Below the pieces are notes generated by a model. That model did not search any database and was not told the origin of the DNA. It saw only the letters and a list, made by a program, of their open reading frames with translations. From Caldilineales bacterium (lineage in GTDB: Bacteria; Chloroflexota; Anaerolineae; J102): a stretch of 64,000 bases of DNA. The stretch is from positions 5,965 through 69,964 of the forward strand of contig JBBINH010000001.1 in NCBI GenBank assembly GCA_037443945.1, written 5' to 3'. Positions 9,016-22,679 of this stretch are shown one piece after another. Position numbers and translations under genes: made by a program. Position 1 is the stretch's first letter. Every line of letters begins with the position of its first letter.

Positions 9016-10752
9016 ATGTTCTCCGCGCGTGGTTTGTCCAAATGGCTGGGATTGCTGGCCGTCATCGGCTTTGCTGTCCTGAGCGTGGGATGTCGCCCAT
9101 CGCCTACGCCCACGCCTACCCCTACGCCGACGCCGTTCATTCCGCCCACACCGCCGCCAACGGCGGCCGATGTGGGGTTGGGACCGGCGCCAGTGACGAG
9201 TTTGGCCGTGGTTCATCAGCCTTTCGGCGATGGGGCCTGTGGGGCCTGTCATGATCTGCGAGGCTCCGACCCCAGGCAGATGTGGGGCGCAATCCAGGAG
9301 GTGTGCCGCCAGTGCCATTGGCAGGATGTGCCCGATCCGGATAGGCCCCTTGCCCATCCGCATGCGCCTTTTGCCCGCGGGGAGTGTCTAACCTGTCATC
9401 TGCCTCATGCCGGTGCCCATCCCAAGCTGCTGGTGGCACCGGTGACGCAGCTCTGTAACGATTGCCATCAAGACCACGGCGGCATCGTGCAGCAGCCCCA
9501 TCCGCAAGTAGCCCAGGGCGAGTGTAATCTCTGTCATCTTGCGCATGGTTCAATGCAGCCGGCCCTGTTGCGCCAACCGCAGAAAGTCCTGTGCGGCGTA
9601 TGCCATCCCGATCCGATCGATCCCCAGCGTAGTTTTGCTGCCCATGCCGAGGCTCCGGAGCTGACGTGTACGAGCTGTCATGCGCCTCATGATCCGGCGG
9701 CGCAACCGGCGCAAGTGACCCGCGCCATCTGTGTGACCTGCCATGCCGATCTGCCTGTGCCGGCGGATTTCCGCTTTCCTCACAAGCCTTTTGCCGAGGA
9801 GCGCTGCGCCGATTGCCATCCGTCGTTTCATCGGGATCCCGATAGACCGCTTCTGGCGGCTACACAGTCCCAATCGTGCAATGCCTGCCATGGCGATCAC
9901 GGCCTGGTGGTGACCCAGACCCATCCGCAGGTGGCCAAAGGCGAATGCCGTCTGTGCCACGATGGTCATGGCAGCAACCACCCCAACCAACTGGTCAGGC
10001 CCGAAATCGATATCTGTCAAAGCTGTCACGGTGAGGTATTCGCTGCGACCGCTTTTGCCGGCCATGCCGTCGCTCAATTGCCGGCCTGTACGAGCTGTCA
10101 TTCGCCCCACGTACCCCAAACGGCCGGTCCGGCCGTGGCCATGGCCTGCGCAACCTGCCATCAGGATATTCTGGCCGGCCGCAGTCAGCACAAGCCCGTG
10201 AGCCAGGGGGAGTGCAAGGCCTGTCACAGCGAGTTTCACGGTCAACAGCCGACACAACTGGCTGCGGTTCAGACGGTCTGCACCGATTGTCATCAGCTCG
10301 AAAAGGGCTCTATTGCGCATCCGCCCTATCAACAGGGCCGCTGTGAGACGTGTCATGTCGTGCACACCAGTCCGCATACGGCCCTGCTCAATCGCGCACC
10401 TACCCAATTGTGCGGCACCTGTCATGTCTCACAAACGGCCGCTTTCGGACGCAGCCGGCATGCCGCTCACCTGACCGCCCAATGCGCGGCCTGCCATCAG
10501 GCTCACGATGGCTCGATCGACAACCTGCTCCATGCCCGCACGAATGCGCTCTGTGATACCTGCCATCGCGATCTGCCGCACGGCTTCCATCCGGTCAGCG
10601 GGGGGCGCGATCCGGTGCGCGGAGGCGAATTGAGCTGTATCAGTTGCCATGCGCCTCATGGCAGCCCGCATCGGGCCGACCTGCGTGCGCCCGGTGACGG
10701 GCTTTGTCTGAGCTGCCATCGTTTCGAGCAGCCTCCTACAGCGCGAAGATAA
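9016..10752 (+). CDS. 22-heme c-type cytochrome lipoprotein (paired-CxxCH, DmsE/MtrA-like repeats)
   Basis: Lipobox LSVGC, PT-rich linker, 22 CxxCH motifs counted, many in doubled CxxCH..H..L..CxxCH units. Confidence 0.93.
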   Translation: MFSARGLSKWLGLLAVIGFAVLSVGCRPSPTPTPTPTPTPFIPPTPPPTAADVGLGPAPVTSLAVVHQPFGDGACGACHDLRGSDPRQMWGAIQEVCRQCHWQDVPDPDRPLAHPHAPFARGECLTCHLPHAGAHPKLLVAPVTQLCNDCHQDHGGIVQQPHPQVAQGECNLCHLAHGSMQPALLRQPQKVLCGVCHPDPIDPQRSFAAHAEAPELTCTSCHAPHDPAAQPAQVTRAICVTCHADLPVPADFRFPHKPFAEERCADCHPSFHRDPDRPLLAATQSQSCNACHGDHGLVVTQTHPQVAKGECRLCHDGHGSNHPNQLVRPEIDICQSCHGEVFAATAFAGHAVAQLPACTSCHSPHVPQTAGPAVAMACATCHQDILAGRSQHKPVSQGECKACHSEFHGQQPTQLAAVQTVCTDCHQLEKGSIAHPPYQQGRCETCHVVHTSPHTALLNRAPTQLCGTCHVSQTAAFGRSRHAAHLTAQCAACHQAHDGSIDNLLHARTNALCDTCHRDLPHGFHPVSGGRDPVRGGELSCISCHAPHGSPHRADLRAPGDGLCLSCHRFEQPPTARR

Positions 10753-10756
10753 GCCG

Positions 10757-13700
10757 ATGAAGCGTCTGTTCCTGCTCTGGATGACATGGGGCCTCCTCCT
10801 GGTGGCCCTGGCAGGGGGTAACCGTTTGGCGCCTATCGTCGCCGAACAAGGTGCGCCGTTCAATCCGCATGGTCGTTACAGCGCGGCAACGAACAGTTGC
10901 ACGGTTTGTCATGTACCGCATAGCCGTACAACCGATCCCGAGGCGGCCTGCCGCAGTTGCCATCCCCGGATCGTCACCCACAGGGAGCAGACCTGCGCCA
11001 CCTGCCATGCTCCCCACGGCAATACGCCCAATGCCGCCCTTATCCAGGCGGTGGTTCGCGGCAAACCCATGCGCTTTGACGGCAAAAACTTCGATGCCGC
11101 TGCCGATTCCATCTGCCGTACCTGTCACACCACCACGGCCTATCACAGCGCCACGGCCCGGAGCAGCCATTACGAGCAACAGCCTTGCACGAATTGCCAT
11201 CCCCACAGCGCCGGCTTTAGTCCCAATCCGGAGAACTGCGGGGCCTGCCACGGTTTTCCGCCTGCCAGTGGCGCCCATAATCGCCATCGCCAGGCCGATA
11301 TCGGTCTGACCGATTGCCAGGCCTGCCATCCGCAGGTGCGGAACTGGCGCGATCCAGGCCATTACAACGGGCGTGTTGATTTCAAGGACCGGGCCGTGCT
11401 GGCCACGACAGGCGTCTGTAATGCCTGTCATGGCAATGCCGCCGGCATCGCCGAAGCCAAGGCCAACTGGAGCCGTGGTCGCCCTCTGCAGGATTGTACC
11501 GGTTGCCACAACAGCACCCAACCAGGACGGCTGCGGGATCGGGTGGCGCCGGCCGTGGATGCGTTTTGGACGGTCAACGGCCATGGGCAGGGCCACGAGC
11601 AAGGCCGCGATCTGGATTGCCAGGCCTGTCACAATCCGCAGGCGCCTCATTTCGACACGGCCGGCAACCCCCGGTTGTGGGATACCCCGGCTGCCTTGTG
11701 CGCCCGTTGCCATCAGGACCCCGCTCGCGCCGGCGCCGATGTGAGCGCTCACGGCAACCAGGGCTACGCTCAGGCCACCCAACGGCCCTTCGGCGAGACC
11801 TGCGATGCGTGTCATAACCCCCATGGCAGCGCCAATCTGGCGGCCGTGCGCGCTGCTATCCGCGGCAAGACGGTGGTTTTCATCGCCCGCACCGGCGCCA
11901 ACAGCTTCGATTCCCCCAACGACGAGAACAGCCGCGATCTCTGCGCCACCTGTCATACCACGACCCGCCACAATCGTACACCCAGCAATCGCAGTCAGAC
12001 GCCCCATTACGAGGGGCAGGATTGTGGGCAGTGTCACAAGCATGAAACAGATGGCGATCCGCGCACGGCCGATGCCTTCATGCCCCAGGGCGGTTGTATG
12101 GCCTGCCATAGCGACCGGGTGGATAACGGCGATAACATTCCACCCGGTGGCCGCCCGGAGGTCGCCACGGACTTTGCCGGCCGCAGTCATCACATCAAGG
12201 GTGACCTGCTCGACGCCCGCTGTGTGGTCTGTCACGATATGGCCACCCACGGCGACGGCTATATTGACCTACGCCATCCCGACGGCGGGCCTGCTTTCCG
12301 TTTCCTCGAGGCCTCGGCTACCGATCTGACGGCTTTCTGCCAGGCTTGCCACGACGGCGACGGCAGCCGCGTGGCCAGGGTGCCCGGCGCGCAACCGGCC
12401 GATCCGTTCAACGAGGGCAGCGATCTGCTGGCCTTGCCGCCTACAAACACCCACAGCAATCGGGATGATGCCGGCCGCCAGGGCGAGGCGTTTAGCACGA
12501 CCTGCAACGAATGCCATGCCGGACACGGCAGCAGCAATCTGGCCCTGGTCCGCACGGCCATCCGTGGGCAGACGATTGTCTTCACCGCCCGCACCGGTGC
12601 GAATAGCTTCGACGACCCGGATAAGGATGACCGCAACGACCTTTGCGCCACCTGCCACATCGGGCGGACCCGTCTGCATCCGGGTGGCGACCATCGGCCG
12701 GCCGGCGACCTGGACCTGCGCGGGACCGATTGCACCACCTGTCACCGCCACGATGCCGATAACAGCCTTGCCACTCGCGATGGGTTTATGCCCTCGTGTG
12801 GGGCCTGCCATGGCAACCCGCCGCCGCCCGCCGGCAGTCCGCTCTACACTCTCAACGAGAACCTAACTCCGCACCGAAAGCATGCCGGCACCGGGCCGGG
12901 TGAATACGGTTTGGCCTGCAGTACCTGCCATAACCGGTTGGTGCCGTCCTACACTGGCCACGTGACCCGGCCGCCCAGCTTCCAGGATGTCTTCTTCGAT
13001 GCTCTGAATCCCATCGGCAGCTACGATCGCCAGACCCGCACCTGTGCTACCCTGGGTTGCCACAGCAATGGCAATCCCACCGGCGGCCAACTCATCTACC
13101 GCAATCCGGTATGGGCCGAAAACAGCCGTTTGGATTGCGCCGGCTGTCACGGCGATCAGGCCACGTTGGCGACCGGCAGCCACGCCGGGCATCTGTTGCC
13201 TTTCTATCGCGATCGTGGGGCCGATGCTATCGGTTGTTTCGAATGCCATGCCCTGACCGCCCAGAACAACGATAACAACGCCCTGGCCGATTTGCGCAAG
13301 CATGTCAACTTGACCAAGGATGTCCAGTTCGATGTGCGCGACTTGTGGGGGCGATCGGATAACGCCGTCTTCGATCCGAATACCCTCACCTGCGCCAATA
13401 GCCTGTGCCATTCGGATGGTGCGGCCAGCCGCGAACAACCCGATGTTCCCGTCTTCAGCACGCCCAAGTGGGGCGATCGGGCCAGCGGGACCTGTGGCAC
13501 CTGTCATAGTATCACGCCGCAGACGATGACCAGCGGCGCCCACGCGCGTCACTTCGATACCTCCAACCAGGGGCCGGGTATCACCTCGTGTAGCGATTGC
13601 CATAGTCCCTACGGCAGCACCCAACACGTCAACGGCAAAGTTGAATTCGCCGACGGCAAAACCCTGGCGCAGACCACGGTGTGCGATGCCTGCCATAGCC

Positions 13701-14506
13701 CCGGTGGCGGTTTCGACGGCGTAGCCGAAGCGCGCGCGAACTGGGCTACAAGCCGTCCGGTCCGGTGCGAAGGCTGCCATGATGCCCAACCCGCTGTGGT
13801 CCGGGGTGTGACCGCCCCCAACGTGGCCGGCGACGGCCGTACGTACGGCTTTGCCCTCGGCGGACATGGGCGTCTCGGCTTTACCTGCGCCACCTGCCAT
13901 GAGAAGGGGCCCAACAGCATTCACTTCGACGGCGTGGCCCGGACCTATACGGCGGCCGCCGACAACCTGGAAGCCGCCAAATGGCTGGGATTGGGTGGCT
14001 TGAAAGTGCCTATTACCGCCGAGGATCCCTACGTTCGGACCCACTACGCCCAGTGCTACGTCTGCCATCTCGAGGCGAACACGGTAGGTTTGGGACCGGG
14101 CTACAGCAATGCGCTGTTCACGCATAGCGTGCCCCCACCGCCGGGCTATCCTCTAATCGTGGATACGGTTGTCACCCGCTTCCGCAACGAACGGCCCGAA
14201 GGCTTCAACTTCGGCAACGTTCCGGCCAACATCCACTGGGACCACCTAGATATGAACATGGTGAACTGGGATAGCGATGGCGATGGCACGATGGACTCCA
14301 AGCCCTCGTGTGTGACCTGTCATGACCCGCACGGGGTCAAATCCTTCGCCGATGGTGTCACCTATCCGGCCATGACGATCGCCGACATGGGTATCGTCCA
14401 CGGCCAGGATGCTATCGGCGCCTACGGCGAGGTAACACAAACGGCCTACAACAACCGCTGTCGCACCTGTCATCCCGCTGCCGGTATCCGCTATTATCGA
14501 CCGTGA
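10757..14506 (+). CDS. giant secreted multiheme cytochrome c (32 CxxCH + 2 CxxxxCH)
   Basis: Sec-type signal peptide; motifs hand-counted; CATLGCH...CAGCH and CANSLCH...CGTCH resemble the Geobacter CxxxxCH...CxxCH domain. Confidence 0.93.
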   Translation: MKRLFLLWMTWGLLLVALAGGNRLAPIVAEQGAPFNPHGRYSAATNSCTVCHVPHSRTTDPEAACRSCHPRIVTHREQTCATCHAPHGNTPNAALIQAVVRGKPMRFDGKNFDAAADSICRTCHTTTAYHSATARSSHYEQQPCTNCHPHSAGFSPNPENCGACHGFPPASGAHNRHRQADIGLTDCQACHPQVRNWRDPGHYNGRVDFKDRAVLATTGVCNACHGNAAGIAEAKANWSRGRPLQDCTGCHNSTQPGRLRDRVAPAVDAFWTVNGHGQGHEQGRDLDCQACHNPQAPHFDTAGNPRLWDTPAALCARCHQDPARAGADVSAHGNQGYAQATQRPFGETCDACHNPHGSANLAAVRAAIRGKTVVFIARTGANSFDSPNDENSRDLCATCHTTTRHNRTPSNRSQTPHYEGQDCGQCHKHETDGDPRTADAFMPQGGCMACHSDRVDNGDNIPPGGRPEVATDFAGRSHHIKGDLLDARCVVCHDMATHGDGYIDLRHPDGGPAFRFLEASATDLTAFCQACHDGDGSRVARVPGAQPADPFNEGSDLLALPPTNTHSNRDDAGRQGEAFSTTCNECHAGHGSSNLALVRTAIRGQTIVFTARTGANSFDDPDKDDRNDLCATCHIGRTRLHPGGDHRPAGDLDLRGTDCTTCHRHDADNSLATRDGFMPSCGACHGNPPPPAGSPLYTLNENLTPHRKHAGTGPGEYGLACSTCHNRLVPSYTGHVTRPPSFQDVFFDALNPIGSYDRQTRTCATLGCHSNGNPTGGQLIYRNPVWAENSRLDCAGCHGDQATLATGSHAGHLLPFYRDRGADAIGCFECHALTAQNNDNNALADLRKHVNLTKDVQFDVRDLWGRSDNAVFDPNTLTCANSLCHSDGAASREQPDVPVFSTPKWGDRASGTCGTCHSITPQTMTSGAHARHFDTSNQGPGITSCSDCHSPYGSTQHVNGKVEFADGKTLAQTTVCDACHSPGGGFDGVAEARANWATSRPVRCEGCHDAQPAVVRGVTAPNVAGDGRTYGFALGGHGRLGFTCATCHEKGPNSIHFDGVARTYTAAADNLEAAKWLGLGGLKVPITAEDPYVRTHYAQCYVCHLEANTVGLGPGYSNALFTHSVPPPPGYPLIVDTVVTRFRNERPEGFNFGNVPANIHWDHLDMNMVNWDSDGDGTMDSKPSCVTCHDPHGVKSFADGVTYPAMTIADMGIVHGQDAIGAYGEVTQTAYNNRCRTCHPAAGIRYYRP

Positions 14507-15636
14507 CCGATCGGGCTTCGTTTCGCATGCGTTGGTATCATCTGTTTTGGATACTGTGGCCGGTGGTCCTGTTGGGGTCGGCGGCCATGGCCCATGCGCA
14601 GGCCGATCCCAATGCTGCCTGTCTGGTCTGTCATAGCGTGCCCGGCCGTGAAGCCCTGCTCGCCAGTGGTGAACATCTGCCGCTCTACGTGAACGGCGAT
14701 GTCTACCGCCTGTCGGTGCACGGGCAAATGCAATTGCCCTGTACGGCCTGTCATACCCGCATTACGGGCTTTCCCCACGATCCGTTGCTCGCTTTCGACC
14801 GCCGCGATTATCAGCTCGACCATTACGGGGTCTGCCGGAATTGTCATCCCGAGGTCTACGAAGCCACCCTGGATTCGATGCACGCGCGGGCCCTGGCTGC
14901 CGGCCGTCGCGAAGCGGCGATTTGTACCGATTGCCACGGTGCTCATGACATCACCTCGCCCCACAGCCCGCGTCAGAAGATTTCGCTGACCTGCAGTAAG
15001 TGCCATGCCTTTATCTTCGAGCAATACAAGGAGAGCGTTCACGGCGCCGCCTTGCTCGAGGAAAGCAACCCGGATGTCCCTACCTGTGTCGATTGCCACG
15101 GCGTTCATAACATCGAGGACCCGACTACGGCGGCTTTTCGGTTGCGCTCGCCCGAAATCTGCGGGGAATGTCACCGCAACGAGGCCCTGATGAGCCAATA
15201 CGGCATCTCGACGGCGGTGTTCAATACCTATGTTGCCGATTTCCATGGGACTACCGTCACGCTGTTCCAACGTCAACACCCCGATCAGCCGACGAACAAG
15301 GCGGTTTGCTTCGATTGCCACGGCATCCATAACATCAAAGCCGTAGATGATCCGGAAGCCACGGTGGTCAAGGAGAATCTGCTGGAGACTTGTCGTAAAT
15401 GCCATCCCGATGCCGATATTAACTTTCCGGCCTCGTGGACCAGCCATTATATCCCCGACCGCAACCGCTACCCTTTGGTGTACTATGTCAATCTGTTCTA
15501 CCGGATCATCATTCCCGGTACCATCGGCTTTATGCTCGGCTTTGTTGTGTTGGATGCTTTTCGGCGTGTGTTGATGCGGACGCGTCGACAACGGGTCGTC
15601 AAACAGGCTTCCGTAGAGGCCGATCATCATGAGTGA
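14503..15636 (+). CDS. nonaheme cytochrome c with C-terminal TM anchor (CbcL/CbcA-like c domain)
   Basis: Signal peptide, 9 CxxCH, C-terminal hydrophobic helix. GTG 14503 overlaps the upstream stop; ATG 14527 is an alternative start. Confidence 0.88.
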   Translation: MTDRASFRMRWYHLFWILWPVVLLGSAAMAHAQADPNAACLVCHSVPGREALLASGEHLPLYVNGDVYRLSVHGQMQLPCTACHTRITGFPHDPLLAFDRRDYQLDHYGVCRNCHPEVYEATLDSMHARALAAGRREAAICTDCHGAHDITSPHSPRQKISLTCSKCHAFIFEQYKESVHGAALLEESNPDVPTCVDCHGVHNIEDPTTAAFRLRSPEICGECHRNEALMSQYGISTAVFNTYVADFHGTTVTLFQRQHPDQPTNKAVCFDCHGIHNIKAVDDPEATVVKENLLETCRKCHPDADINFPASWTSHYIPDRNRYPLVYYVNLFYRIIIPGTIGFMLGFVVLDAFRRVLMRTRRQRVVKQASVEADHHE

Positions 15637-16972
15637 GCAACCCCGACAGGAGTATGTCCGCTTTAGCCGGACCGACCGCATCGAGCATTTTCTGTTGATG
15701 ACATCGTTCACGGTGCTGGTGATCACCGGGCTGCCGCAGAGGTATGTCTCGGCGTCGTGGGCCGAGTTTTTGATCGAGCTGATGGGCGGCATCGAGACGG
15801 TGCGCATCATCCATCGCGTGGCGGCCATCGTGCTCATCCTCGAGAGCATCTTTCATATCATCACCGTTTCCTATAAGCTGTTCGTGCGGCGGGTCTCGCC
15901 GTCCATGTTGCCCACCTTGCAGGACTTCGTGGATTTTCTCGATGCCCTGCGCTATAACCTGGGCCTGGCCAGACGACGACCCCAGTACGACCGTTACAAT
16001 TTCGAGGAAAAAATCGAGTATTGGGCCGTCATCTGGGGCACGGCGGTGATGATCATCACCGGCTTTATGCTGTGGAACCCGATCACCACGACGAAATTTC
16101 TACCGGGTAGCTGGATCCCGGCGGCCAAGGCGGCCCATGGCGGTGAGGCTTTGCTGGCCTTCTTGGCCATTATCGTCTGGCACGTCTATAACGTCCATAT
16201 CAAGACCTTCAACCGGAGCATGTTCACCGGCAAACTCAGCCGGGAGGAGATGCTGCACGAACATCCGAAGGAGTTGGAACGCATCGAATCGGGCAGGGTA
16301 CGGCCCGAGCCGCCGCGCGAGATCATCCGTCGGCGTGAGCGGATTTTCCTTCCTATAGCCGGTCTGTTTGCCGTTTTGGCGTTGGTCGTGATGTACTTTT
16401 TTGTCACCTACGAAGAAACGGCCATTGCCACGGTACCGACCCCGGCCGAGCGAGCTGCCGTCTTTGTTCCGGCTACGCCGGTGCCAACCACCGAAGCGGA
16501 CGTGCGGCTGGCGCTTTCGCGGAGGCAGGCGCAGCCCATCCCTCATGCCATCAGCGCCGGCCGTGAGAACTGTCTGGCCTGTCATGGGCTGGGGACGCTT
16601 TCGCCTTATACGCCTATCCATGCCAATTTGCGGTTGGGCAACGAGACCTGTCTGGGATGTCATCAGCCGATGCCGGGGGCAACCGCATTACCCGACAACA
16701 TCGCCGTGCCGGGCTTCTCGACCGAGATTTTGCCCATCTTGCGGCGTCGTTGTGTGGTTTGCCATAACCCCGCCACGCCGTTGGATCTGACCAGCTATCG
16801 GAGCATCATGCGGGGAGATGGCAAAGGCCCGCTTGTGATTCCCGGCGCCGCCGGGCAGAGTCGGTTGTTGACTCTGGGCGGGCTTCCGGTGGAGGTGCAT
16901 CCCAGTCGGTTTACTCCCGAGGAAATGGCCCGCATCGGTGCCTGGATCGATGCCGGCGCTCCGGAGAACTAA
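15629..16972 (+). CDS. cytochrome b (FdnI/HyaC-type, CbcL/CbcB-like) fused to three c-type heme motifs
   Basis: RFSRTDRIEH, IIHRVAA, YNFEEKIEYWA, AHGGEALLA, WHVY b-heme domain; C-terminal CLACH, CLGCH, CVVCH. Confidence 0.88.
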   Translation: MSEQPRQEYVRFSRTDRIEHFLLMTSFTVLVITGLPQRYVSASWAEFLIELMGGIETVRIIHRVAAIVLILESIFHIITVSYKLFVRRVSPSMLPTLQDFVDFLDALRYNLGLARRRPQYDRYNFEEKIEYWAVIWGTAVMIITGFMLWNPITTTKFLPGSWIPAAKAAHGGEALLAFLAIIVWHVYNVHIKTFNRSMFTGKLSREEMLHEHPKELERIESGRVRPEPPREIIRRRERIFLPIAGLFAVLALVVMYFFVTYEETAIATVPTPAERAAVFVPATPVPTTEADVRLALSRRQAQPIPHAISAGRENCLACHGLGTLSPYTPIHANLRLGNETCLGCHQPMPGATALPDNIAVPGFSTEILPILRRRCVVCHNPATPLDLTSYRSIMRGDGKGPLVIPGAAGQSRLLTLGGLPVEVHPSRFTPEEMARIGAWIDAGAPEN

Positions 16973-16984
16973 TGAGGAGTCACG

Positions 16985-18577
16985 ATGATTCGCCGTTTTC
17001 GCCTCTGGTTTCGCCAACACTGGCAAAAGGCCCTGGGAATCGCTTTTGCCCTCACCGTCCTCGGTTTGGTTGTTTTTGTCATCGGGGTGACAGCTTGGGA
17101 GTACACGAACAGCCCTGAGTTTTGCGGTGCCACCTGTCACACCATGCCCCCGGAGTACATCGCCTATCAGCAATCGCCCCACGCCCGTGTGGCCTGTGTG
17201 GACTGTCATCTGGGGCAGGAGTCGGTGCTCTATGCTATCCCGCGTAAGGCCAGGGAGGTACGTCACGTCGTTTTTGCGCTCACCCAGGATTACGAAATCC
17301 CGATCTATGTCAAAAGCATGCGGCCGGCTCGCGACACGTGCGAGAAATGTCACGACCCGGAGAAATCCTCGCTGGACAGCGTGCGTACCATTACCCGCTA
17401 CGCTACCGATGCGACCAACACCCCGACCGTCATTCATCTGATCCTCAAAACCGGTGGCGGATCGAAACGCGAAGGCCTGGGGCGCGGCATCCACTGGCAT
17501 ACGGTCAATCAGGTTTACTTCCTGACCACCGATCCGCTCAAACAGAACATCCCCTATGTCAAAGAAGTTCGGGATGACGGTTCGGTGGTTGAGTATTTCG
17601 ATCTGGAAAGCGGCATTACACCGGCCGAGGTGGCAGCCCGCAGCAGCGAATTGCACTTGATGGATTGTATCGATTGTCACAATCGGGTTTCCCATCGCTT
17701 CGCCAAGCCCGATATCGCCGTGGACGAGGCCATCACCCGTCGTCTCATCGATGGCTCCCTTCCGCAAATCAAGCAGAAGGCGGTAGAGTTGCTCTCACAA
17801 CCGTCCGGGACGCGTGCCGAGTCGTTGGCCCAGATCGAGGCCCTGGCGGCCTGGTATGAGCAAAACTACCCCGAGGTATATGCGACCCGCCGCGAGGCCA
17901 TCGACCAAGCCATCGCCAGCCTGAAACGCATTTTCGAGTCCATTTACTTCCCCGATATGGCCGTAGGCTGGAGCACGCACCCTGACAACCTGGGCCATCT
18001 CAACTTCCCCGGCTGTTTCCGCTGCCATGACGGCAAACATACCAGTCCCGATGGGCAGACGATTCGGCTGGAGTGCAACATTTGCCATACCATTCCGCGT
18101 GTGACCGGGCCGGGCTTACCGTCCCCTGTGATCAACCTGGTGCCGGCCAACGAACCCGAATCGCACAAAGACAGCAACTGGCTGGCGCGGCATCGCTATG
18201 AGTTCGATGCCACCTGCGCCGGTTGCCATAGCACCTTTAATCGCGGCGGCAGCGATAACAGTTCCTTCTGCGCCAACAGTGCCTGTCACGGCATCCGCTG
18301 GCAATTTGCCGGGTTGGATGCACCGGGTCTGCGGGCCATTTTGCCCCCGCCTGCAACCTCAGAAGACGAAACGGCACCGACGGAGGAAGAGCAACCCGGT
18401 TTTGTACCCCTGATTCCGCATCCCCTTGGTGAGGAACGCATCGGCCAGTGCCGTACCTGCCACGGCCTGCGCGGCCTGAGGCCTTATCCCGAGTATCATG
18501 AGGAGTTTCCCCTTCAGGCCTGCACCGAATGCCACAAGCTGGCACCGATGCTACGAGGACAAACCTCGTTGCGATGA
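16985..18577 (+). CDS. NapC/NirT-family multiheme quinol dehydrogenase (ImcH-like), 10 heme motifs
   Basis: N-terminal TM, YTNSPEFCGATCH, CVDCH, CEKCH, LKTGGG..GIHWH; 8 CxxCH plus CxxxCH and CxxxxCH. Confidence 0.88.
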   Translation: MIRRFRLWFRQHWQKALGIAFALTVLGLVVFVIGVTAWEYTNSPEFCGATCHTMPPEYIAYQQSPHARVACVDCHLGQESVLYAIPRKAREVRHVVFALTQDYEIPIYVKSMRPARDTCEKCHDPEKSSLDSVRTITRYATDATNTPTVIHLILKTGGGSKREGLGRGIHWHTVNQVYFLTTDPLKQNIPYVKEVRDDGSVVEYFDLESGITPAEVAARSSELHLMDCIDCHNRVSHRFAKPDIAVDEAITRRLIDGSLPQIKQKAVELLSQPSGTRAESLAQIEALAAWYEQNYPEVYATRREAIDQAIASLKRIFESIYFPDMAVGWSTHPDNLGHLNFPGCFRCHDGKHTSPDGQTIRLECNICHTIPRVTGPGLPSPVINLVPANEPESHKDSNWLARHRYEFDATCAGCHSTFNRGGSDNSSFCANSACHGIRWQFAGLDAPGLRAILPPPATSEDETAPTEEEQPGFVPLIPHPLGEERIGQCRTCHGLRGLRPYPEYHEEFPLQACTECHKLAPMLRGQTSLR

Positions 18578-18826: not shown

Positions 18827-18856
18827 TTGACACATTGTTCGTACACCATGTATAAT
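18827..18856 (+). promoter_or_regulatory. consensus sigma70 promoter of the Rieske/cytochrome b operon
   Basis: TTGACA (18827-18832), 18-bp spacer, TATAAT (18851-18856). Confidence 0.8.
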
Positions 18857-19020: not shown

Positions 19021-19857
19021 ATGGCTGATACCGAGACGAAACCCCCTGTGACAACCGGAAAAGAAGCGTTCGTGGCATCCGCCGAGGGCCGCGTGGCCGA
19101 GCGTCGGCGCGGCGGCGATACCACCGGAGTCTCCGCCGATCGTTCGGATGGTGAAGAAGGCGGCATCAGCGAAGCAGCAAAACGTTTCCAGGCCCTGAAG
19201 CAAGGTCAGGCTTTGAAGCAAAGCCGCAAAGAGCGCGAGGCTGCCCTGTTGCGCCGGGCCGTTGATATCGCTCCACGCGTGAGTGCCGAGAGTTTACCCG
19301 AAGCCCAACCGCAAAAGGCGCCTTCGCTACCTATCAACCGCCGCGAATTCCTGACCTATGCCTGGGGCGGTGCCCTGGCCCTGGTTTTAGCGCAGGGCGG
19401 ACTGGCCACCCTGTGGTTTGCCTATCCGCGCTTTAAGGCGGGTGAATTCGGCGGTGTCTTTACCCTCACGAGTATCCCGGAGCGGGGCGCTAAACCTGTC
19501 GAGAATTTGCAGGGTAAGTTCTGGTGGACGAATGCCGAAGAAGGCGGGATAATAGCGCTGTATAAGGTCTGCACCCATCTGGGTTGTCTGTACGAGTGGA
19601 AAGACCAGACCCGTCGTTTTGAATGTCCTTGTCATGGTTCCAAGTTTAATCAATCCGGTCGCGTCATTCATGGACCGGCGGCTCGTGACTTGGATCAATT
19701 TGTCGTTACCGTCCTGGATAGCAACGGTAACCAGGTCGATCAAACCACACCCGATCACCGTTATGTTCTTGCCGGTGAAGGACTGACTTACAAGATCGAC
19801 ACCGGTCGTAAGATTCAGGGTCGGCCTGCTGACCCTGCTCTGGCTGTGGAGGCATGA
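19021..19857 (+). CDS. petC: Rieske [2Fe-2S] subunit of a Rieske/cytochrome b complex
   Basis: Tat-like NRREFL plus TM, CTHLGC and CPCHGS boxes, GPAARDL. Confidence 0.93.
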   Translation: MADTETKPPVTTGKEAFVASAEGRVAERRRGGDTTGVSADRSDGEEGGISEAAKRFQALKQGQALKQSRKEREAALLRRAVDIAPRVSAESLPEAQPQKAPSLPINRREFLTYAWGGALALVLAQGGLATLWFAYPRFKAGEFGGVFTLTSIPERGAKPVENLQGKFWWTNAEEGGIIALYKVCTHLGCLYEWKDQTRRFECPCHGSKFNQSGRVIHGPAARDLDQFVVTVLDSNGNQVDQTTPDHRYVLAGEGLTYKIDTGRKIQGRPADPALAVEA

Positions 19858-19860
19858 GTT

Positions 19861-21471
19861 ATGGTTGGTCAAGATATTCGCAGCCGTGGACTACGCGGTT
19901 ATCTCGGCGCCAAGGCCGACAGCGTCTTCGAACGCATCACGGCCGGCATTCCCTGGCGCGATTTCCGGAAGATGCTGCGCGGGGATCCCCCCGATCGTCC
20001 GAATCCACGCCTGAAACCCCATTCCGAGTCGTTTTGGCTGCATATCAAGCCCACCTACTATCACGAATCGGTCACGCACTTCACCCATACCTTTCGGTTG
20101 GGATTGCTGAGCACCTATCTGTTCGTGGTGGAGCTGATTACCGGTCTCATTTTGATGATCTGGTACGCGCCCACGCCTGAGCGGGCTTATGCGGATATGA
20201 TACGTTTGCTATCCAATGTGCCGTTTGGGCAATTGATGCGCGATATTCATCGTCTGGGCGCAGAGGCCATGGTGATCGTCGTGGTTCTGCATATGTTTCG
20301 GACCTTCTTAACCGGTTCGTACAAAAAACCGCGACAGTTCACCTGGGTGACCGGGGTGGTGCTGCTCATCGCCACGCTTTTCCTGAGCTTTTCCGGCTAT
20401 CTTCTGCCCTGGGACCAGCTGGCCTTCTGGGCCGTGACCATCGGTACGAGCATGGCCGAGGCCTCGCCGACACCGCCGGGCGCCGGCTGGATCGGCACCA
20501 TGCTGTTCGGTACTTCCGACTGGGTGGGTCAATTCGTCAACCTGTTGTTGCGTGGGGCACCCGACATCGGTGCCGGCGGGTTGCTGCGCTTCTATCTGCT
20601 CCATATCTTCTTCTTGCCGCTGGTTGTTATCTTCTTCTTCTTCTTCCACTACTACAAGGTGGTCCATTTCGGCATTTCCTTGCCGGCGAAGGAGGAAGAA
20701 GTCGGTCAGGATACGGCCAACCGGGTGCCGGCCGATAAACGGCGCTATTACCTGATGGACATCGCCATTGACGAGATAGCCCTGCTTTCGGTGGTCACTT
20801 TCGTTCTGGTAGCGATGTCTGCCTTTTTCTATGATGCCAAGTTGGAACACATTGCCAATCCCCTGAAGACACCACTGCATACGACGGCACCCTGGTATTT
20901 CTACTGGCTCCAGGGTTTGCTCAAGATCGGCAACAAAGTGTTTTGGGGCTTGATTGTGCCCGGGATCATGATTTTCCTCACCTTTGCGCTACCGTATCTC
21001 GATTACAATCCCAGTCGTCGCGGGAAGGACCGTCGTTATGCTCTGGTAGCCGGCTTTCTCTTCGCCTCTTGGATCGTGGTCCTCTCCTTCATGGGCCTGC
21101 CCCTCTATGCCGTGCAATCCCCGCCGGCCGAAGAGGTGGTTCAAGAGTTCATGCCCGAAGAAGGGGTCGGCCCCATCCGTGAGATCCCCTGGTCTGAGCT
21201 GGAAATCGGCGTGTATGACACACGGACCTTTGAAGGGAGTGTGCCCTACTCCGAGTTCGAGCAGGTTATCCTGGACTTCAAGGAGCGCATTGCCCGAGAC
21301 CCCGGTTTGCCCAACGGCAGCGGTATTATCACCGTTGAAGCGGCCGGTCCGGGTTTGAAACGAATCAAGTTCCAGATCGATTACACCGATATCGACGGGA
21401 AGCCGGCTCAGTTTATCAAGACCTTCTATCTGCACGAGAGTTCGCTCTATTGGGAGCAATTCACCTTCTGA
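19861..21471 (+). CDS. petB: cytochrome b subunit (b6 plus subunit IV fused) of a Rieske/cytochrome b complex
   Basis: Heme-b histidines in RDIHR, VLHMFR, LLHIFF, FFHYY; [14 protein letters not shown]; Qo motif APWY. Confidence 0.93.
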
Positions 21472-21486
21472 GGAGGCTCACTCCCG

Positions 21487-22617
21487 ATGTACGGTGTATC
21501 CCGTCTTGTCATTGCGACCATGGCGCTCGTGGGCACTTTTGTCGTCGTGCTGCTGACGGCGGCACAGGAACCGGCTCGCATGGAGCGCTATGCGGCCAAT
21601 TTCCACGGCCGCGAGATGGAAGTGGGTGCCCAGATTTATTTCGAGGCCTGTGCCGTCTGTCATGGTCAACACGGCGAAGGGCTGGTCGGTCCGGCCCTCA
21701 ACTCGGCCGATTTGCTGCTACCCGCGCCCGGACAAACGCGTCCTCCACGCTTGCTGGCTAAGAATTACCTGGGGGACTTGCGCAGCTATCTCGAAGGCAC
21801 TATCACCTACGGTCGGCCCGGCACGGCCATGCCTGCCTGGGGACAGGCGGCGGGCGGACCCTTCCGCCCCGATCAGATTGCCGCTGTAGCGACCTTTATC
21901 ATGAATTGGGGACTCGACCCCGGCAAACAGTGGGGCGGCGCATCCGAGCGCGTGGCCATCGGCGGCGTTGAACCGGTACTCGTGACGCCCGCCGTGTCGA
22001 TGGCAACCCCACCCCCTCGCAATGTCCGCAGTGTGGAGCTGGGTAAGTATCTCTTCAACGGCCCGGCCGGCTGTGCCGAATGCCATACCTTCGACATCGC
22101 CACCGGCAAAACCGGCCCCGACCTGACGAACATCGTCCAAACCAAGGGCCGCGATTATGTGCGCACCTCCATCGTCGACCCCAACGGCATGGTGGCACCT
22201 GACCATGCTCCGAGTGTGATGCCGCAAACCTTTGCCTTTGCTCTGACCGACATCGAGCTGGAGTCCATCATCGATTACCTGGAGAATCCGGCGGCCGCAG
22301 CCCAGGAAGCGACTCCGGCACCGGCAGCACCGCTGGACGGCAAGCAGGTAGCCCAAAGCGCCGGTTGTCTTGCCTGCCATTCGGTGGATGGCTCCGCCCT
22401 GGTCGGACCGACCTGGCAAGGTCTTTTCGGTCACGAGGTCGAGTTGGAAGATGGCAGTAAAGTGATCGCCGACGAGGCGTATTTGCGCGAATCCATCCTC
22501 AATCCTGCAGCCAAGATCGTCAAGGGTTACCAGAATCTGATGCCCGCCAACTACGAGCAACTGCTAACCCCGGAGCAGATCACGGCCATTATCGAGTACA
22601 TCAAGCTTCTGCAATAG
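21487..22617 (+). CDS. membrane-anchored triheme class I cytochrome c
   Basis: N-terminal TM; CAVCH, CAECH and CLACH each in a class I domain; last domain GPTWQGL...YLRESI..P. Confidence 0.9.
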   Translation: MYGVSRLVIATMALVGTFVVVLLTAAQEPARMERYAANFHGREMEVGAQIYFEACAVCHGQHGEGLVGPALNSADLLLPAPGQTRPPRLLAKNYLGDLRSYLEGTITYGRPGTAMPAWGQAAGGPFRPDQIAAVATFIMNWGLDPGKQWGGASERVAIGGVEPVLVTPAVSMATPPPRNVRSVELGKYLFNGPAGCAECHTFDIATGKTGPDLTNIVQTKGRDYVRTSIVDPNGMVAPDHAPSVMPQTFAFALTDIELESIIDYLENPAAAAQEATPAPAAPLDGKQVAQSAGCLACHSVDGSALVGPTWQGLFGHEVELEDGSKVIADEAYLRESILNPAAKIVKGYQNLMPANYEQLLTPEQITAIIEYIKLLQ

Positions 22618-22644
22618 GGTACGAGCCCTTGCCGCCTCTCCGCA

Positions 22645-22679
22645 GCCGCCTATCCGTTCCGGATGGGCGGCTTTTTTTT
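22645..22679 (+). terminator. rho-independent terminator
   Basis: GCCGCCTATCCG-TTC-CGGATGGGCGGC followed by 8 T. Confidence 0.9.

Follow-up and report, generated by a model that had tools for sequence, protein, structure and literature searches.

An ImcH-family cytochrome and a predicted split CbcL/MtoC-type bc cytochrome encoded in one Chloroflexota operon

How might a bacterium of the phylum Chloroflexota connect its quinone pool to haem proteins outside the cytoplasmic membrane? The question is raised by a 64,000-nucleotide stretch of contig JBBINH010000001.1 (positions 5,965 to 69,964; assembly GCA_037443945.1) from a Caldilineales bacterium of a subsurface metagenome, a stretch that we call the window. 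Three adjacent plus-strand genes, g3 (14503–15636), g4 (15629–16972), and g5 (16985–18577), had been described in an earlier sequence-only reading of 14503–18577, with the same coordinates, as a nonahaem c gene, an FdnI-type cytochrome b gene, and a NapC/NirT multihaem gene, and motifs, protein families, and transmembrane helices bore this description out. We considered it reasonably probable (about 0.6) that the trio encodes two membrane modules through which the menaquinone pool is connected to extracytoplasmic haem chains and that these modules are the conserved core of a Chloroflexota operon. What we observed, and set out below, is the identity of the domains, their topology, the conserved ligands, the structure of the operon, and the conservation of these genes across the phylum, where they are frequently linked.

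The trio closes a run of five tightly packed plus-strand genes, g1–g5, that occupies positions 9016–18577. The stop codon of g2 and the start codon of g3 share the letters GTGA, g3 and g4 overlap by 8 nt, and the 12-nt spacing between g4 and g5 contains the Shine-Dalgarno sequence GAGGAG. These overlapping or short junctions and the Shine-Dalgarno sequence fit co-translation of g2–g5 in one operon.

The g5 gene encodes a 530-residue, NrfH-like multihaem cytochrome with a single transmembrane helix (residues 17–35) and ten haem sites, comprising eight CxxCH motifs, a CX3CH motif at residue 47, and a CX4CH motif at residue 429, all of which were invariant in 47 homologues. Residues 16–106 matched the NapC/NirT family (PF03264; E = 4.2e-12), and residues 23–144 matched NrfH from Desulfovibrio vulgaris (2j7a_C; E = 3.8e-8). 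The first haem site, C47-GAT-C51-H52, comes after the helix; the segment CGATCHTM (47–54) aligned to the CxxCHxM sequence of NrfH with a one-residue insertion, and Lys88 aligned to NrfH Lys82. Cys47, Cys51, His52, and Lys88 were invariant in the 47 homologues, and Met54 was at least 90% conserved.

A first motif of the CX3CH type directly after the membrane helix is the hallmark of ImcH (Levar et al., 2014; Zhong & Shi, 2018). Other features of g5 also resembled ImcH of Geobacter sulfurreducens (GSU3259), including a size of ~500 residues, NapC/NirT similarity confined to the helix and the first three haems, and an association of the gene with multihaem cytochrome genes, not mtrAB. Motif offsets were 0/24/72/181/297/317/364 in g5 and 0/24/73/179/296/316/354 in GSU3259, so the first six agree within 3 residues, including unusual gaps of ~107 and ~116 residues. 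The homologue from Anaerolinea thermophila, which likewise has one transmembrane helix, has offsets of 0/23/72/179/295/315, and both BLAST and phylogeny have assigned it to the ImcH family (Zhong & Shi, 2018). The g5 offsets were kept across the g5 homologues listed, in which C-terminal extensions bring 0–10 further haems. With the published fingerprint matched almost residue for residue, we assign g5 on these sequence criteria to the ImcH family, in agreement with the ImcH-like label that the sequence-only reading had given it. The gene differs from imcH of G. sulfurreducens, which is monocistronic, in lying within an operon, and the g5-type family differs from ImcH in being very large within Chloroflexota.

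The N-terminal helix, the CH-x-M first haem, and the conserved lysine of g5 are shared with NrfH and CymA, and by analogy g5 probably shares their outer-face quinol-oxidising chemistry. By contrast with NrfH, which has ~160 residues and four haems, g5 has 530 residues and ten haem sites, its CX3CH motif is one residue longer, NrfH Asp89 is not conserved, and there is no NrfA partner; the g5 score on the NrfH model TIGR03153 was 62.9, against a cut-off of 134.2. A tblastn search of plasmids with g5 returned only NrfH/NapC-like N-terminal similarity. The AlphaFold model of g5 had a mean predicted local distance difference test score (pLDDT) of 60, was poor near the haem sites, and had no PDB fold match at E ≤ 0.001 in Foldseek. 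The haem-free stretch between motifs 3 and 5 (residues ~130–320) was in part modelled confidently, with beta strands in 130–206 and a helical bundle at ~240–320 (pLDDT 79–97), and this stretch, which lacked a PDB fold match, may be a domain specific to the ImcH family.

What, then, are g3 and g4? The g3 product is a 377-residue c-type cytochrome with an N-terminal signal or anchor, exactly nine CxxCH motifs (at residues 40, 80, 111, 141, 164, 195, 220, 269, and 297), and a C-terminal transmembrane helix at ~335–353. Homologues of ~366–376 residues that were 57–91% identical to g3 were found in more than 120 clusters. The 447-residue g4 product is a dihaem cytochrome b with the FdnI fold, in which four transmembrane helices are followed by a fifth and by a c-type tail with three CxxCH motifs (at 315, 341, and 375); this helix and the trihaem tail are features that the sequence-only reading had not mentioned. 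Hydropathy placed the starts of the five helices at 18, 64, 131, 173, and 239, with the fifth spanning 239–257. Because both termini of FdnI are cytoplasmic, the fifth helix would put the trihaem domain outside, as c-type haems require.

The b domain of g4 (residues 1–230) matched PF01292 (E = 1.3e-14), the FdnI model TIGR01583 (E = 4.9e-16; 59.3 bits, below the cut-off of 115.85), and Escherichia coli FdnI (1kqf_C; E = 2.3e-10). All four histidines that ligate the b haems of FdnI (His18, His57, His155, and His169) were matched in g4 (His20, His62, His170, and His185). The AlphaFold2 model was confident in this domain (10-residue block means of 73–94 over residues 1–230) and superimposed on 1kqf_C with a target-normalised TM-score of 0.79 in Foldseek; the second match was the cytochrome b of E. 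coli hydrogenase-1. The two proteins also have in common a portion of the YN..(Q/E)K loop close to the quinone site. In contrast, g4 is only ~19% identical to FdnI, has an extra helix and a c-type haem domain, and is partnered by a multihaem c subunit rather than by FdnGH. Two further histidines, His76 in the second helix and His190 in the fourth, are invariant across the b-domain family and have no FdnI counterpart; they could be a feature of the quinone site or provide alternative haem ligation, as has been speculated for CbcL.

We searched 1.84 billion cluster representatives exhaustively for relatives of the g4 b domain and obtained 2334, of which 472 scored below 1e-30; haem-motif fingerprinting covered the best 150. 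Most of these 150, like g4, have C-terminal c haems (1–14), and the remainder are either bare b proteins of ~230–370 residues or proteins with an N-terminal multihaem c domain ahead of the b domain. Two relatives of the latter kind, P0271 (641 residues) and P0302 (780 residues), have exactly the motif spacing of g3 and are colinear first with g3 (51–53% identity) and then with g4 (40–55% identity). These natural fusions indicate that one orthologous unit exists in both a split and a single-chain form. The b domains formed a single compact clade in a neighbour-joining tree, separated from FdnI by a long branch. The domains most closely related to that of g4 were b domains either joined to multihaem c proteins in one chain or lying next to them, with scores of 180–425 bits to such domains and 43 bits to FdnI. 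In Ignavibacteriae and Vicinamibacterales, stand-alone b proteins of the g4 clade are flanked by a seven-haem c protein with a C-terminal helix and by an eight-haem protein, so a division into c and b subunits is common across phyla. A profile built from the most CbcL-like b domains retrieved only stand-alone b cytochromes of other phyla.

Comparison with CbcL of G. sulfurreducens (GSU0274) refined this picture. CbcL is a 619-residue protein with haem motifs at residues 34, 57, 82, 105, 129, 158, 186, 229, and 257 and six transmembrane helices at 285, 351, 399, 477, 511, and 589 (Zhong & Shi, 2018). Like CbcL, the g3–g4 pair has nine CxxCH motifs followed by a transmembrane helix and six helices in total (1 + 4 + 1), one in g3 and five in g4. 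The spacing of the g4 helices (46/67/42/66) parallels that of the second through sixth helices of CbcL (48/78/34/78); both have a four-helix b domain of the FdnI/HydC-like type, with two histidines in the helix equivalent to the fourth of FdnI, and then a sixth helix. The final haem interval of g3 (28 residues) and the distance from the last haem to the helix are also the same. The last five haems and the helix of g3 aligned to P0373 (33% identity, E = 3e-29), whose last five motifs are spaced 29/26/43/28, compared with 29/28/43/28 in CbcL. In contrast to the single CbcL chain, g3 and g4 are two polypeptides split inside the loop between the first and second helices, g4 bears the extra extracytoplasmic trihaem tail, and the g3 helix equivalent to the first of CbcL has no histidine. 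Haem intervals are 40/31/30/23/31/25/49/28 in g3, 23/25/23/24/29/28/43/28 in CbcL, and 40/23/53/31/31/25/30/28 in MtoC.

From these comparisons, g3 appears to be the c half and g4 the b half of a split CbcL/MtoC-type bc cytochrome, and the pair appears to be a distinct clade inside the CbcL/MtoC/MtrH-type family rather than a set of CbcL orthologues. The sequence-only reading had called the pair CbcL-like and split: the layout supports that name (nine haems, one plus five helices, FdnI-type histidines, and natural fusions), whereas orthology to CbcL does not hold, as the CbcL fingerprint is absent from the 150 nearest representatives and the spacing differs.

Two other guides were tried and dropped. 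Geobacter CbcBA (GSU0593–0594) also consists of a separate multihaem c subunit with a C-terminal transmembrane anchor and a separate four-helix dihaem b subunit. However, CbcA has seven haems and a C-terminal helix that supplies the fourth b-haem histidine, and CbcB, which is of the thiosulfate-reductase or hydrogenase type and was reported to have no sequence homology to CbcL, has three ligand histidines; g3 has nine haems and no helix histidine, and g4 has all four histidines at FdnI positions. A CbcBA-like reading, judged from the published description of CbcBA, was rejected because histidine pattern and haem number disagree. The top solved-structure match of g3 was a 278-residue protein named "Cytochrome c" (PDB 28pb_A), with six colinear motifs spaced 33/23/22/24/29; it was set aside because the match was weak (E ~1e-4), CbcL has a different spacing, and P0375 did not match it.

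How widely are these genes conserved and linked? Each of the three proteins has full-length homologues in the thousands, and the features described above go well past what chance would produce. Homologues were counted as 90% clusters, giving at least 7254 for g5 and at least 5591 for g3; the named clusters among the matches listed were from Chloroflexota, save one partial match labelled Nitrososphaera. A scan of species genomes with two g5-specific peptide patterns found the ImcH-like gene in at least 595, and the best 80, from which loci were taken, were nearly all Anaerolineae, Caldilineales, Ardenticatenaceae, and relatives. Two g5 homologues with 45–49% identity came from genomes labelled Actinomycetota (L045) and Deltaproteobacteria (L085), placements that could reflect misbinning or horizontal transfer. 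Linkage was counted over the 63 loci with enough flanking sequence, using a 10-kb window for the pair. A c-plus-b pair lay within 10 kb of the g5 homologue in 44 of these loci, in the order g3-g4-g5 (33 loci), in the order g5-g3-g4 (7), or on the opposite strand (4), and no pair was found within 10 kb in the other 19. Unlinked g5 homologues still adjoin other multihaem cytochrome genes. In 12 of 64 loci, genes for a Rieske/cytochrome b complex follow the g5 homologue at a distance of no more than 2.5 kb, and in two (L043 and L088) they separate g4 from g5.

We suggest the following mechanism, drawing by analogy on characterised relatives for quinol oxidation, the direction in which electrons would flow, the acceptor outside the cell, and any sharing of work according to redox potential. 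In the first module, the four-helix dihaem b domain of g4 would span the membrane, with the nonahaem g3 subunit held alongside by its C-terminal helix and the additional trihaem domain set outside by the fifth g4 helix. A quinone site would lie near the cytoplasmic-side b haem, as in FdnI, and electrons would cross by way of the two b haems to g3 and the trihaem tail. In the second module, the single helix of g5 and its NrfH-like first haem, with the CH-x-M sequence and the conserved lysine, would form a menaquinol site at the outer face, followed by nine further haems. Both modules would pass electrons to the large multihaem cytochromes g1 and g2 at the cell surface and would serve to deliver electrons to minerals or partner cells, outside the cell or on its surface. 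Members of the Chloroflexota are usually considered monoderm, and Ardenticatena has been reported as such; given this envelope and the lack of a porin-like gene in the operon, an "outer wire" would consist of wall-associated cytochromes rather than a porin-cytochrome conduit.

Several points weigh against the two-module interpretation. Membership in the CbcL and ImcH families was judged from published motif and transmembrane-helix coordinates and from transitive similarity, without direct alignment to GSU0274 or GSU3259. The g3 spacing departs from that of CbcL in its first half, four of its eight haem intervals equal those of MtoC/MtrH, and the CbcL fingerprint was absent among the best 150 of the 2334 b-domain representatives. 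MtoC and MtrH occur in Fe(II) oxidisers too, so electrons could flow through g3 and g4 either way. For g5, the departures from ImcH are the single transmembrane helix in place of three, as in the A. thermophila and Intrasporangium calvum members of the family, and three extra C-terminal haem sites, among them the invariant CX4CH. In Ardenticatena maritima, a cultured Fe(III)-reducing Chloroflexi bacterium, at most seven haem motifs per protein were reported, and its genome therefore appears to be without g3, whose homologues carry nine. Finally, transcript data were sought for the source sample, and only four DNA runs were found, with no RNA runs or expression data.

If the trio does form two membrane modules, in which direction and at what potentials would they work? 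One possibility, which we hold tentatively, is suggested by analogy with Geobacter: g5 and g3/g4 would be alternative, potential-dependent exits from the quinone pool, a redox gearbox in which g5 serves high-potential acceptors and g3/g4 low-potential ones, the transmembrane b haems of g3/g4 making the latter reaction less energy-conserving. The NrfH-like site of g5 is at the outer face, whereas g4 is a transmembrane dihaem b protein with the ligand pattern of FdnI, and this difference in coupling geometry makes the two-route idea plausible. The homologous pair of G. sulfurreducens splits its labour at about –0.1 V. Moreover, the modules are genetically separable, since g5 homologues lack a nearby g3/g4 pair in 19 of 63 loci and gene order varies, a pattern more in keeping with two independent units than with a single obligate complex. 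Division of labour by potential is harder to reconcile with g3/g4 not being orthologous to CbcL and with a haem spacing at least as near to MtoC/MtrH, and a shared operon transcript would give no regulatory separation of the two routes; the Geobacter pair, however, is also constitutively expressed. A reversed arrangement, in which electrons from Fe(II), a cathode, or a partner cell enter the quinone pool, seems to us rather unlikely, and somewhat less probable than the two-exit idea. Here the FdnI-like g4 would reduce quinone at the cytoplasmic face and generate proton-motive force, with the other branch left to the adjacent bc complex. MtoC of the Fe(II) oxidisers Dechloromonas and Gallionella, with which g3 shares half of its haem intervals, belongs to the CbcL/MtoC/MtrH family; a published survey detected nothing in the sequences by which oxidising and reducing family members could be told apart; and the Rieske/cytochrome b complex adjoins the trio here and at the loci counted above, lying inside the cluster in two of them. 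FdnI itself runs in the quinone-reducing direction. ImcH homologues, in contrast, have so far been reported from Fe(III) reducers only, and many carriers of the genes are Anaerolineae, which in culture have been described as anaerobic fermenters. Neither Cyc2 nor another known Fe(II)-oxidase marker was seen in g1–g8, although no search was aimed at such markers.

The most conventional explanation would make g4 the gamma subunit of a formate dehydrogenase or hydrogenase and g5 an NrfH that serves a nitrite reductase or another reductase of soluble substrates. Relatives carry automatic names of this kind ("formate dehydrogenase subunit gamma", "nitrate/TMAO reductase-like tetraheme cytochrome c subunit"), and the Pfam and NCBIfam matches fall in the formate dehydrogenase gamma and NrfH-type families. 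Both proteins nevertheless score far under the family cut-offs (59 versus 115.85 for TIGR01583 and 62.9 versus 134.2 for TIGR03153), motif and domain scans of the window found no formate dehydrogenase, hydrogenase, molybdopterin, Fe-S, NiFe, or NrfA gene, and g1–g8 contain no CxxCK motif of the kind borne by NrfA. Multihaem cytochromes, moreover, neighbour homologues of the trio in every locus examined. Together with the much stronger kinship of the b domain to c-associated b domains than to FdnI, these results effectively refute the conventional explanation, to which we assign only a very small probability; kinship with unrelated formate dehydrogenase or hydrogenase b subunits or with NrfH-type proteins, the outcome that the sequence-only reading had named as contradicting it, was not found.

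Against this background, we return to the two membrane modules and to what may be new about them. The sequence-only reading had presented side-by-side imcH-like and cbcL-like genes as distinctive, by contrast with Geobacter. Homologues of both were already known on consecutive locus tags in several metagenome-assembled genomes (MAGs) of Desulfuromonadales and Syntrophales (A2X79_01185/01190, A2X92_08560/08565, and A2X96_02390/02395; Zhong & Shi, 2018), and this part of the claim falls away. Previous work had also noted that A. thermophila has an ImcH homologue, that multihaem cytochromes abound in Anaerolineae, and that there are "cbcB-cbcA fusions in Chloroflexi". No CbcL-type protein was found in Chloroflexi by the 2018 survey (Zhong & Shi), whose templates were all fused proteins, so that split forms were probably missed. 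The features that appear undescribed in the searchable literature are the split unit of a nonahaem c and a b-plus-trihaem protein, the regularity with which a one-helix protein of the ImcH type accompanies this unit, and how extensive both are in Chloroflexota.

Anaerolineae and Caldilineae, whose respiration is poorly understood, belong to the most abundant bacteria of sediments, aquifers, anaerobic digesters, and bioelectrochemical reactors. The presence of an ImcH-family gene in at least 595 species-level genomes, usually beside a split CbcL-type bc cytochrome and multihaem "wires", suggests a broader but doubtful proposal, namely a quinol-oxidase hub that extends through the phylum, in which an outer-face ImcH-type site and a split CbcL-type b route would feed interchangeable surface multihaem cytochromes, with a Rieske/cytochrome b complex in a fifth of the loci. 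If this proposal were true, many supposedly fermentative Anaerolineae would be facultative respirers of minerals or electrodes. In addition, the locus is a natural test case for the Geobacter ImcH/CbcL model, with the two routes co-encoded, the bc unit split, and a different cell envelope.

The first two genes of the operon encode the largest cytochromes. The g1 gene (9016–10752, plus strand) specifies a 578-residue c-type cytochrome with 22 CxxCH motifs, an N-terminal anchor, and a Pro/Thr-rich linker, and its product matched Paired_CXXCH_1 (E = 7.3e-82). The g2 gene (10757–14506, plus strand) specifies a 1249-residue cytochrome with 32 CxxCH and two CXnCH motifs, 34 haem sites in all, which matched MtrC/MtrF domain II/IV (E = 1.1e-25) and GSu_C4xC__C2xCH. 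We regard both as putative accessory extracytoplasmic haem wires. An orthologue of g1 was found only in a Caldilineales locus (L006) and in L010 and L012, and among carriers of the trio, giants like g1 and g2 were confined to close Caldilineales relatives (L006, L009, L010, and L012; L015 gave weak matches). The idea, also put forward in the sequence-only reading, of a self-contained module packaged with its outer wire did not survive this distribution, nor the 19 of 63 loci in which g5 is present without the c-plus-b pair. In two Anaerolineae loci (L004 and L005), a ten-haem protein of ~700 residues is encoded after g5 in place of g1 and g2. A ten-haem cytochrome of this size with a fixed motif pattern (74, 109, 140, 215, 231...) recurs beside g5 homologues in Anaerolineae (L004, 12518–14614; L005, 12143–14245; L016; L018; L041; and L066), where it occupies the g1/g2 position.

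The N-terminus of g1 (window positions 9016–9200) consists of a hydrophobic segment that ends in LSVGC and then the Pro/Thr-rich linker PSPTPTPTPTPTPFIPPTPPPT, a linker that would suit a tethered, wall-spanning surface protein of a monoderm cell. Public gene calls for the Chloroflexota MAG that carries this stretch (GCA_037441015.1) omit g1 and place four short minus-strand open reading frames without Pfam matches there instead (L001, 1753–3735); the Caldilineales orthologue of g1 (L006, 2451–4211) is annotated in the public calls.

Downstream of g5, a 443-nt gap precedes the Rieske gene and holds a perfect TTGACA-18-TATAAT sequence (18827–18856, plus strand), which matches the sigma-70-type consensus at 12 of 12 positions and is a consensus match only. 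Genes g6–g8 (19021–22617, plus strand) encode a Rieske protein, a fused cytochrome b/subunit IV of 536 residues, and a membrane-anchored protein with three cytochrome c domains, with Pfam matches to Rieske, Cytochrome_B/B_C, and Cytochrom_C; a strong terminator with a 13-bp stem lies 3′ of the cytochrome c gene g8 (22644–22672). The promoter consensus upstream of the Rieske gene and the terminator downstream suggest that the Rieske/cytochrome b complex is transcribed on its own, although its place beside g5 is conserved. The loci at which such a complex recurs are L009, L010, L018, L019, L023, L028, L034, L038, L040, L048–L050, and L077, together with L043 and L088. The N-terminal half of g7 scored 208.9 bits, under the cut-off of 290, on the NCBIfam model for ExtP, a b cytochrome that belongs to a selenite/tellurite reduction operon.

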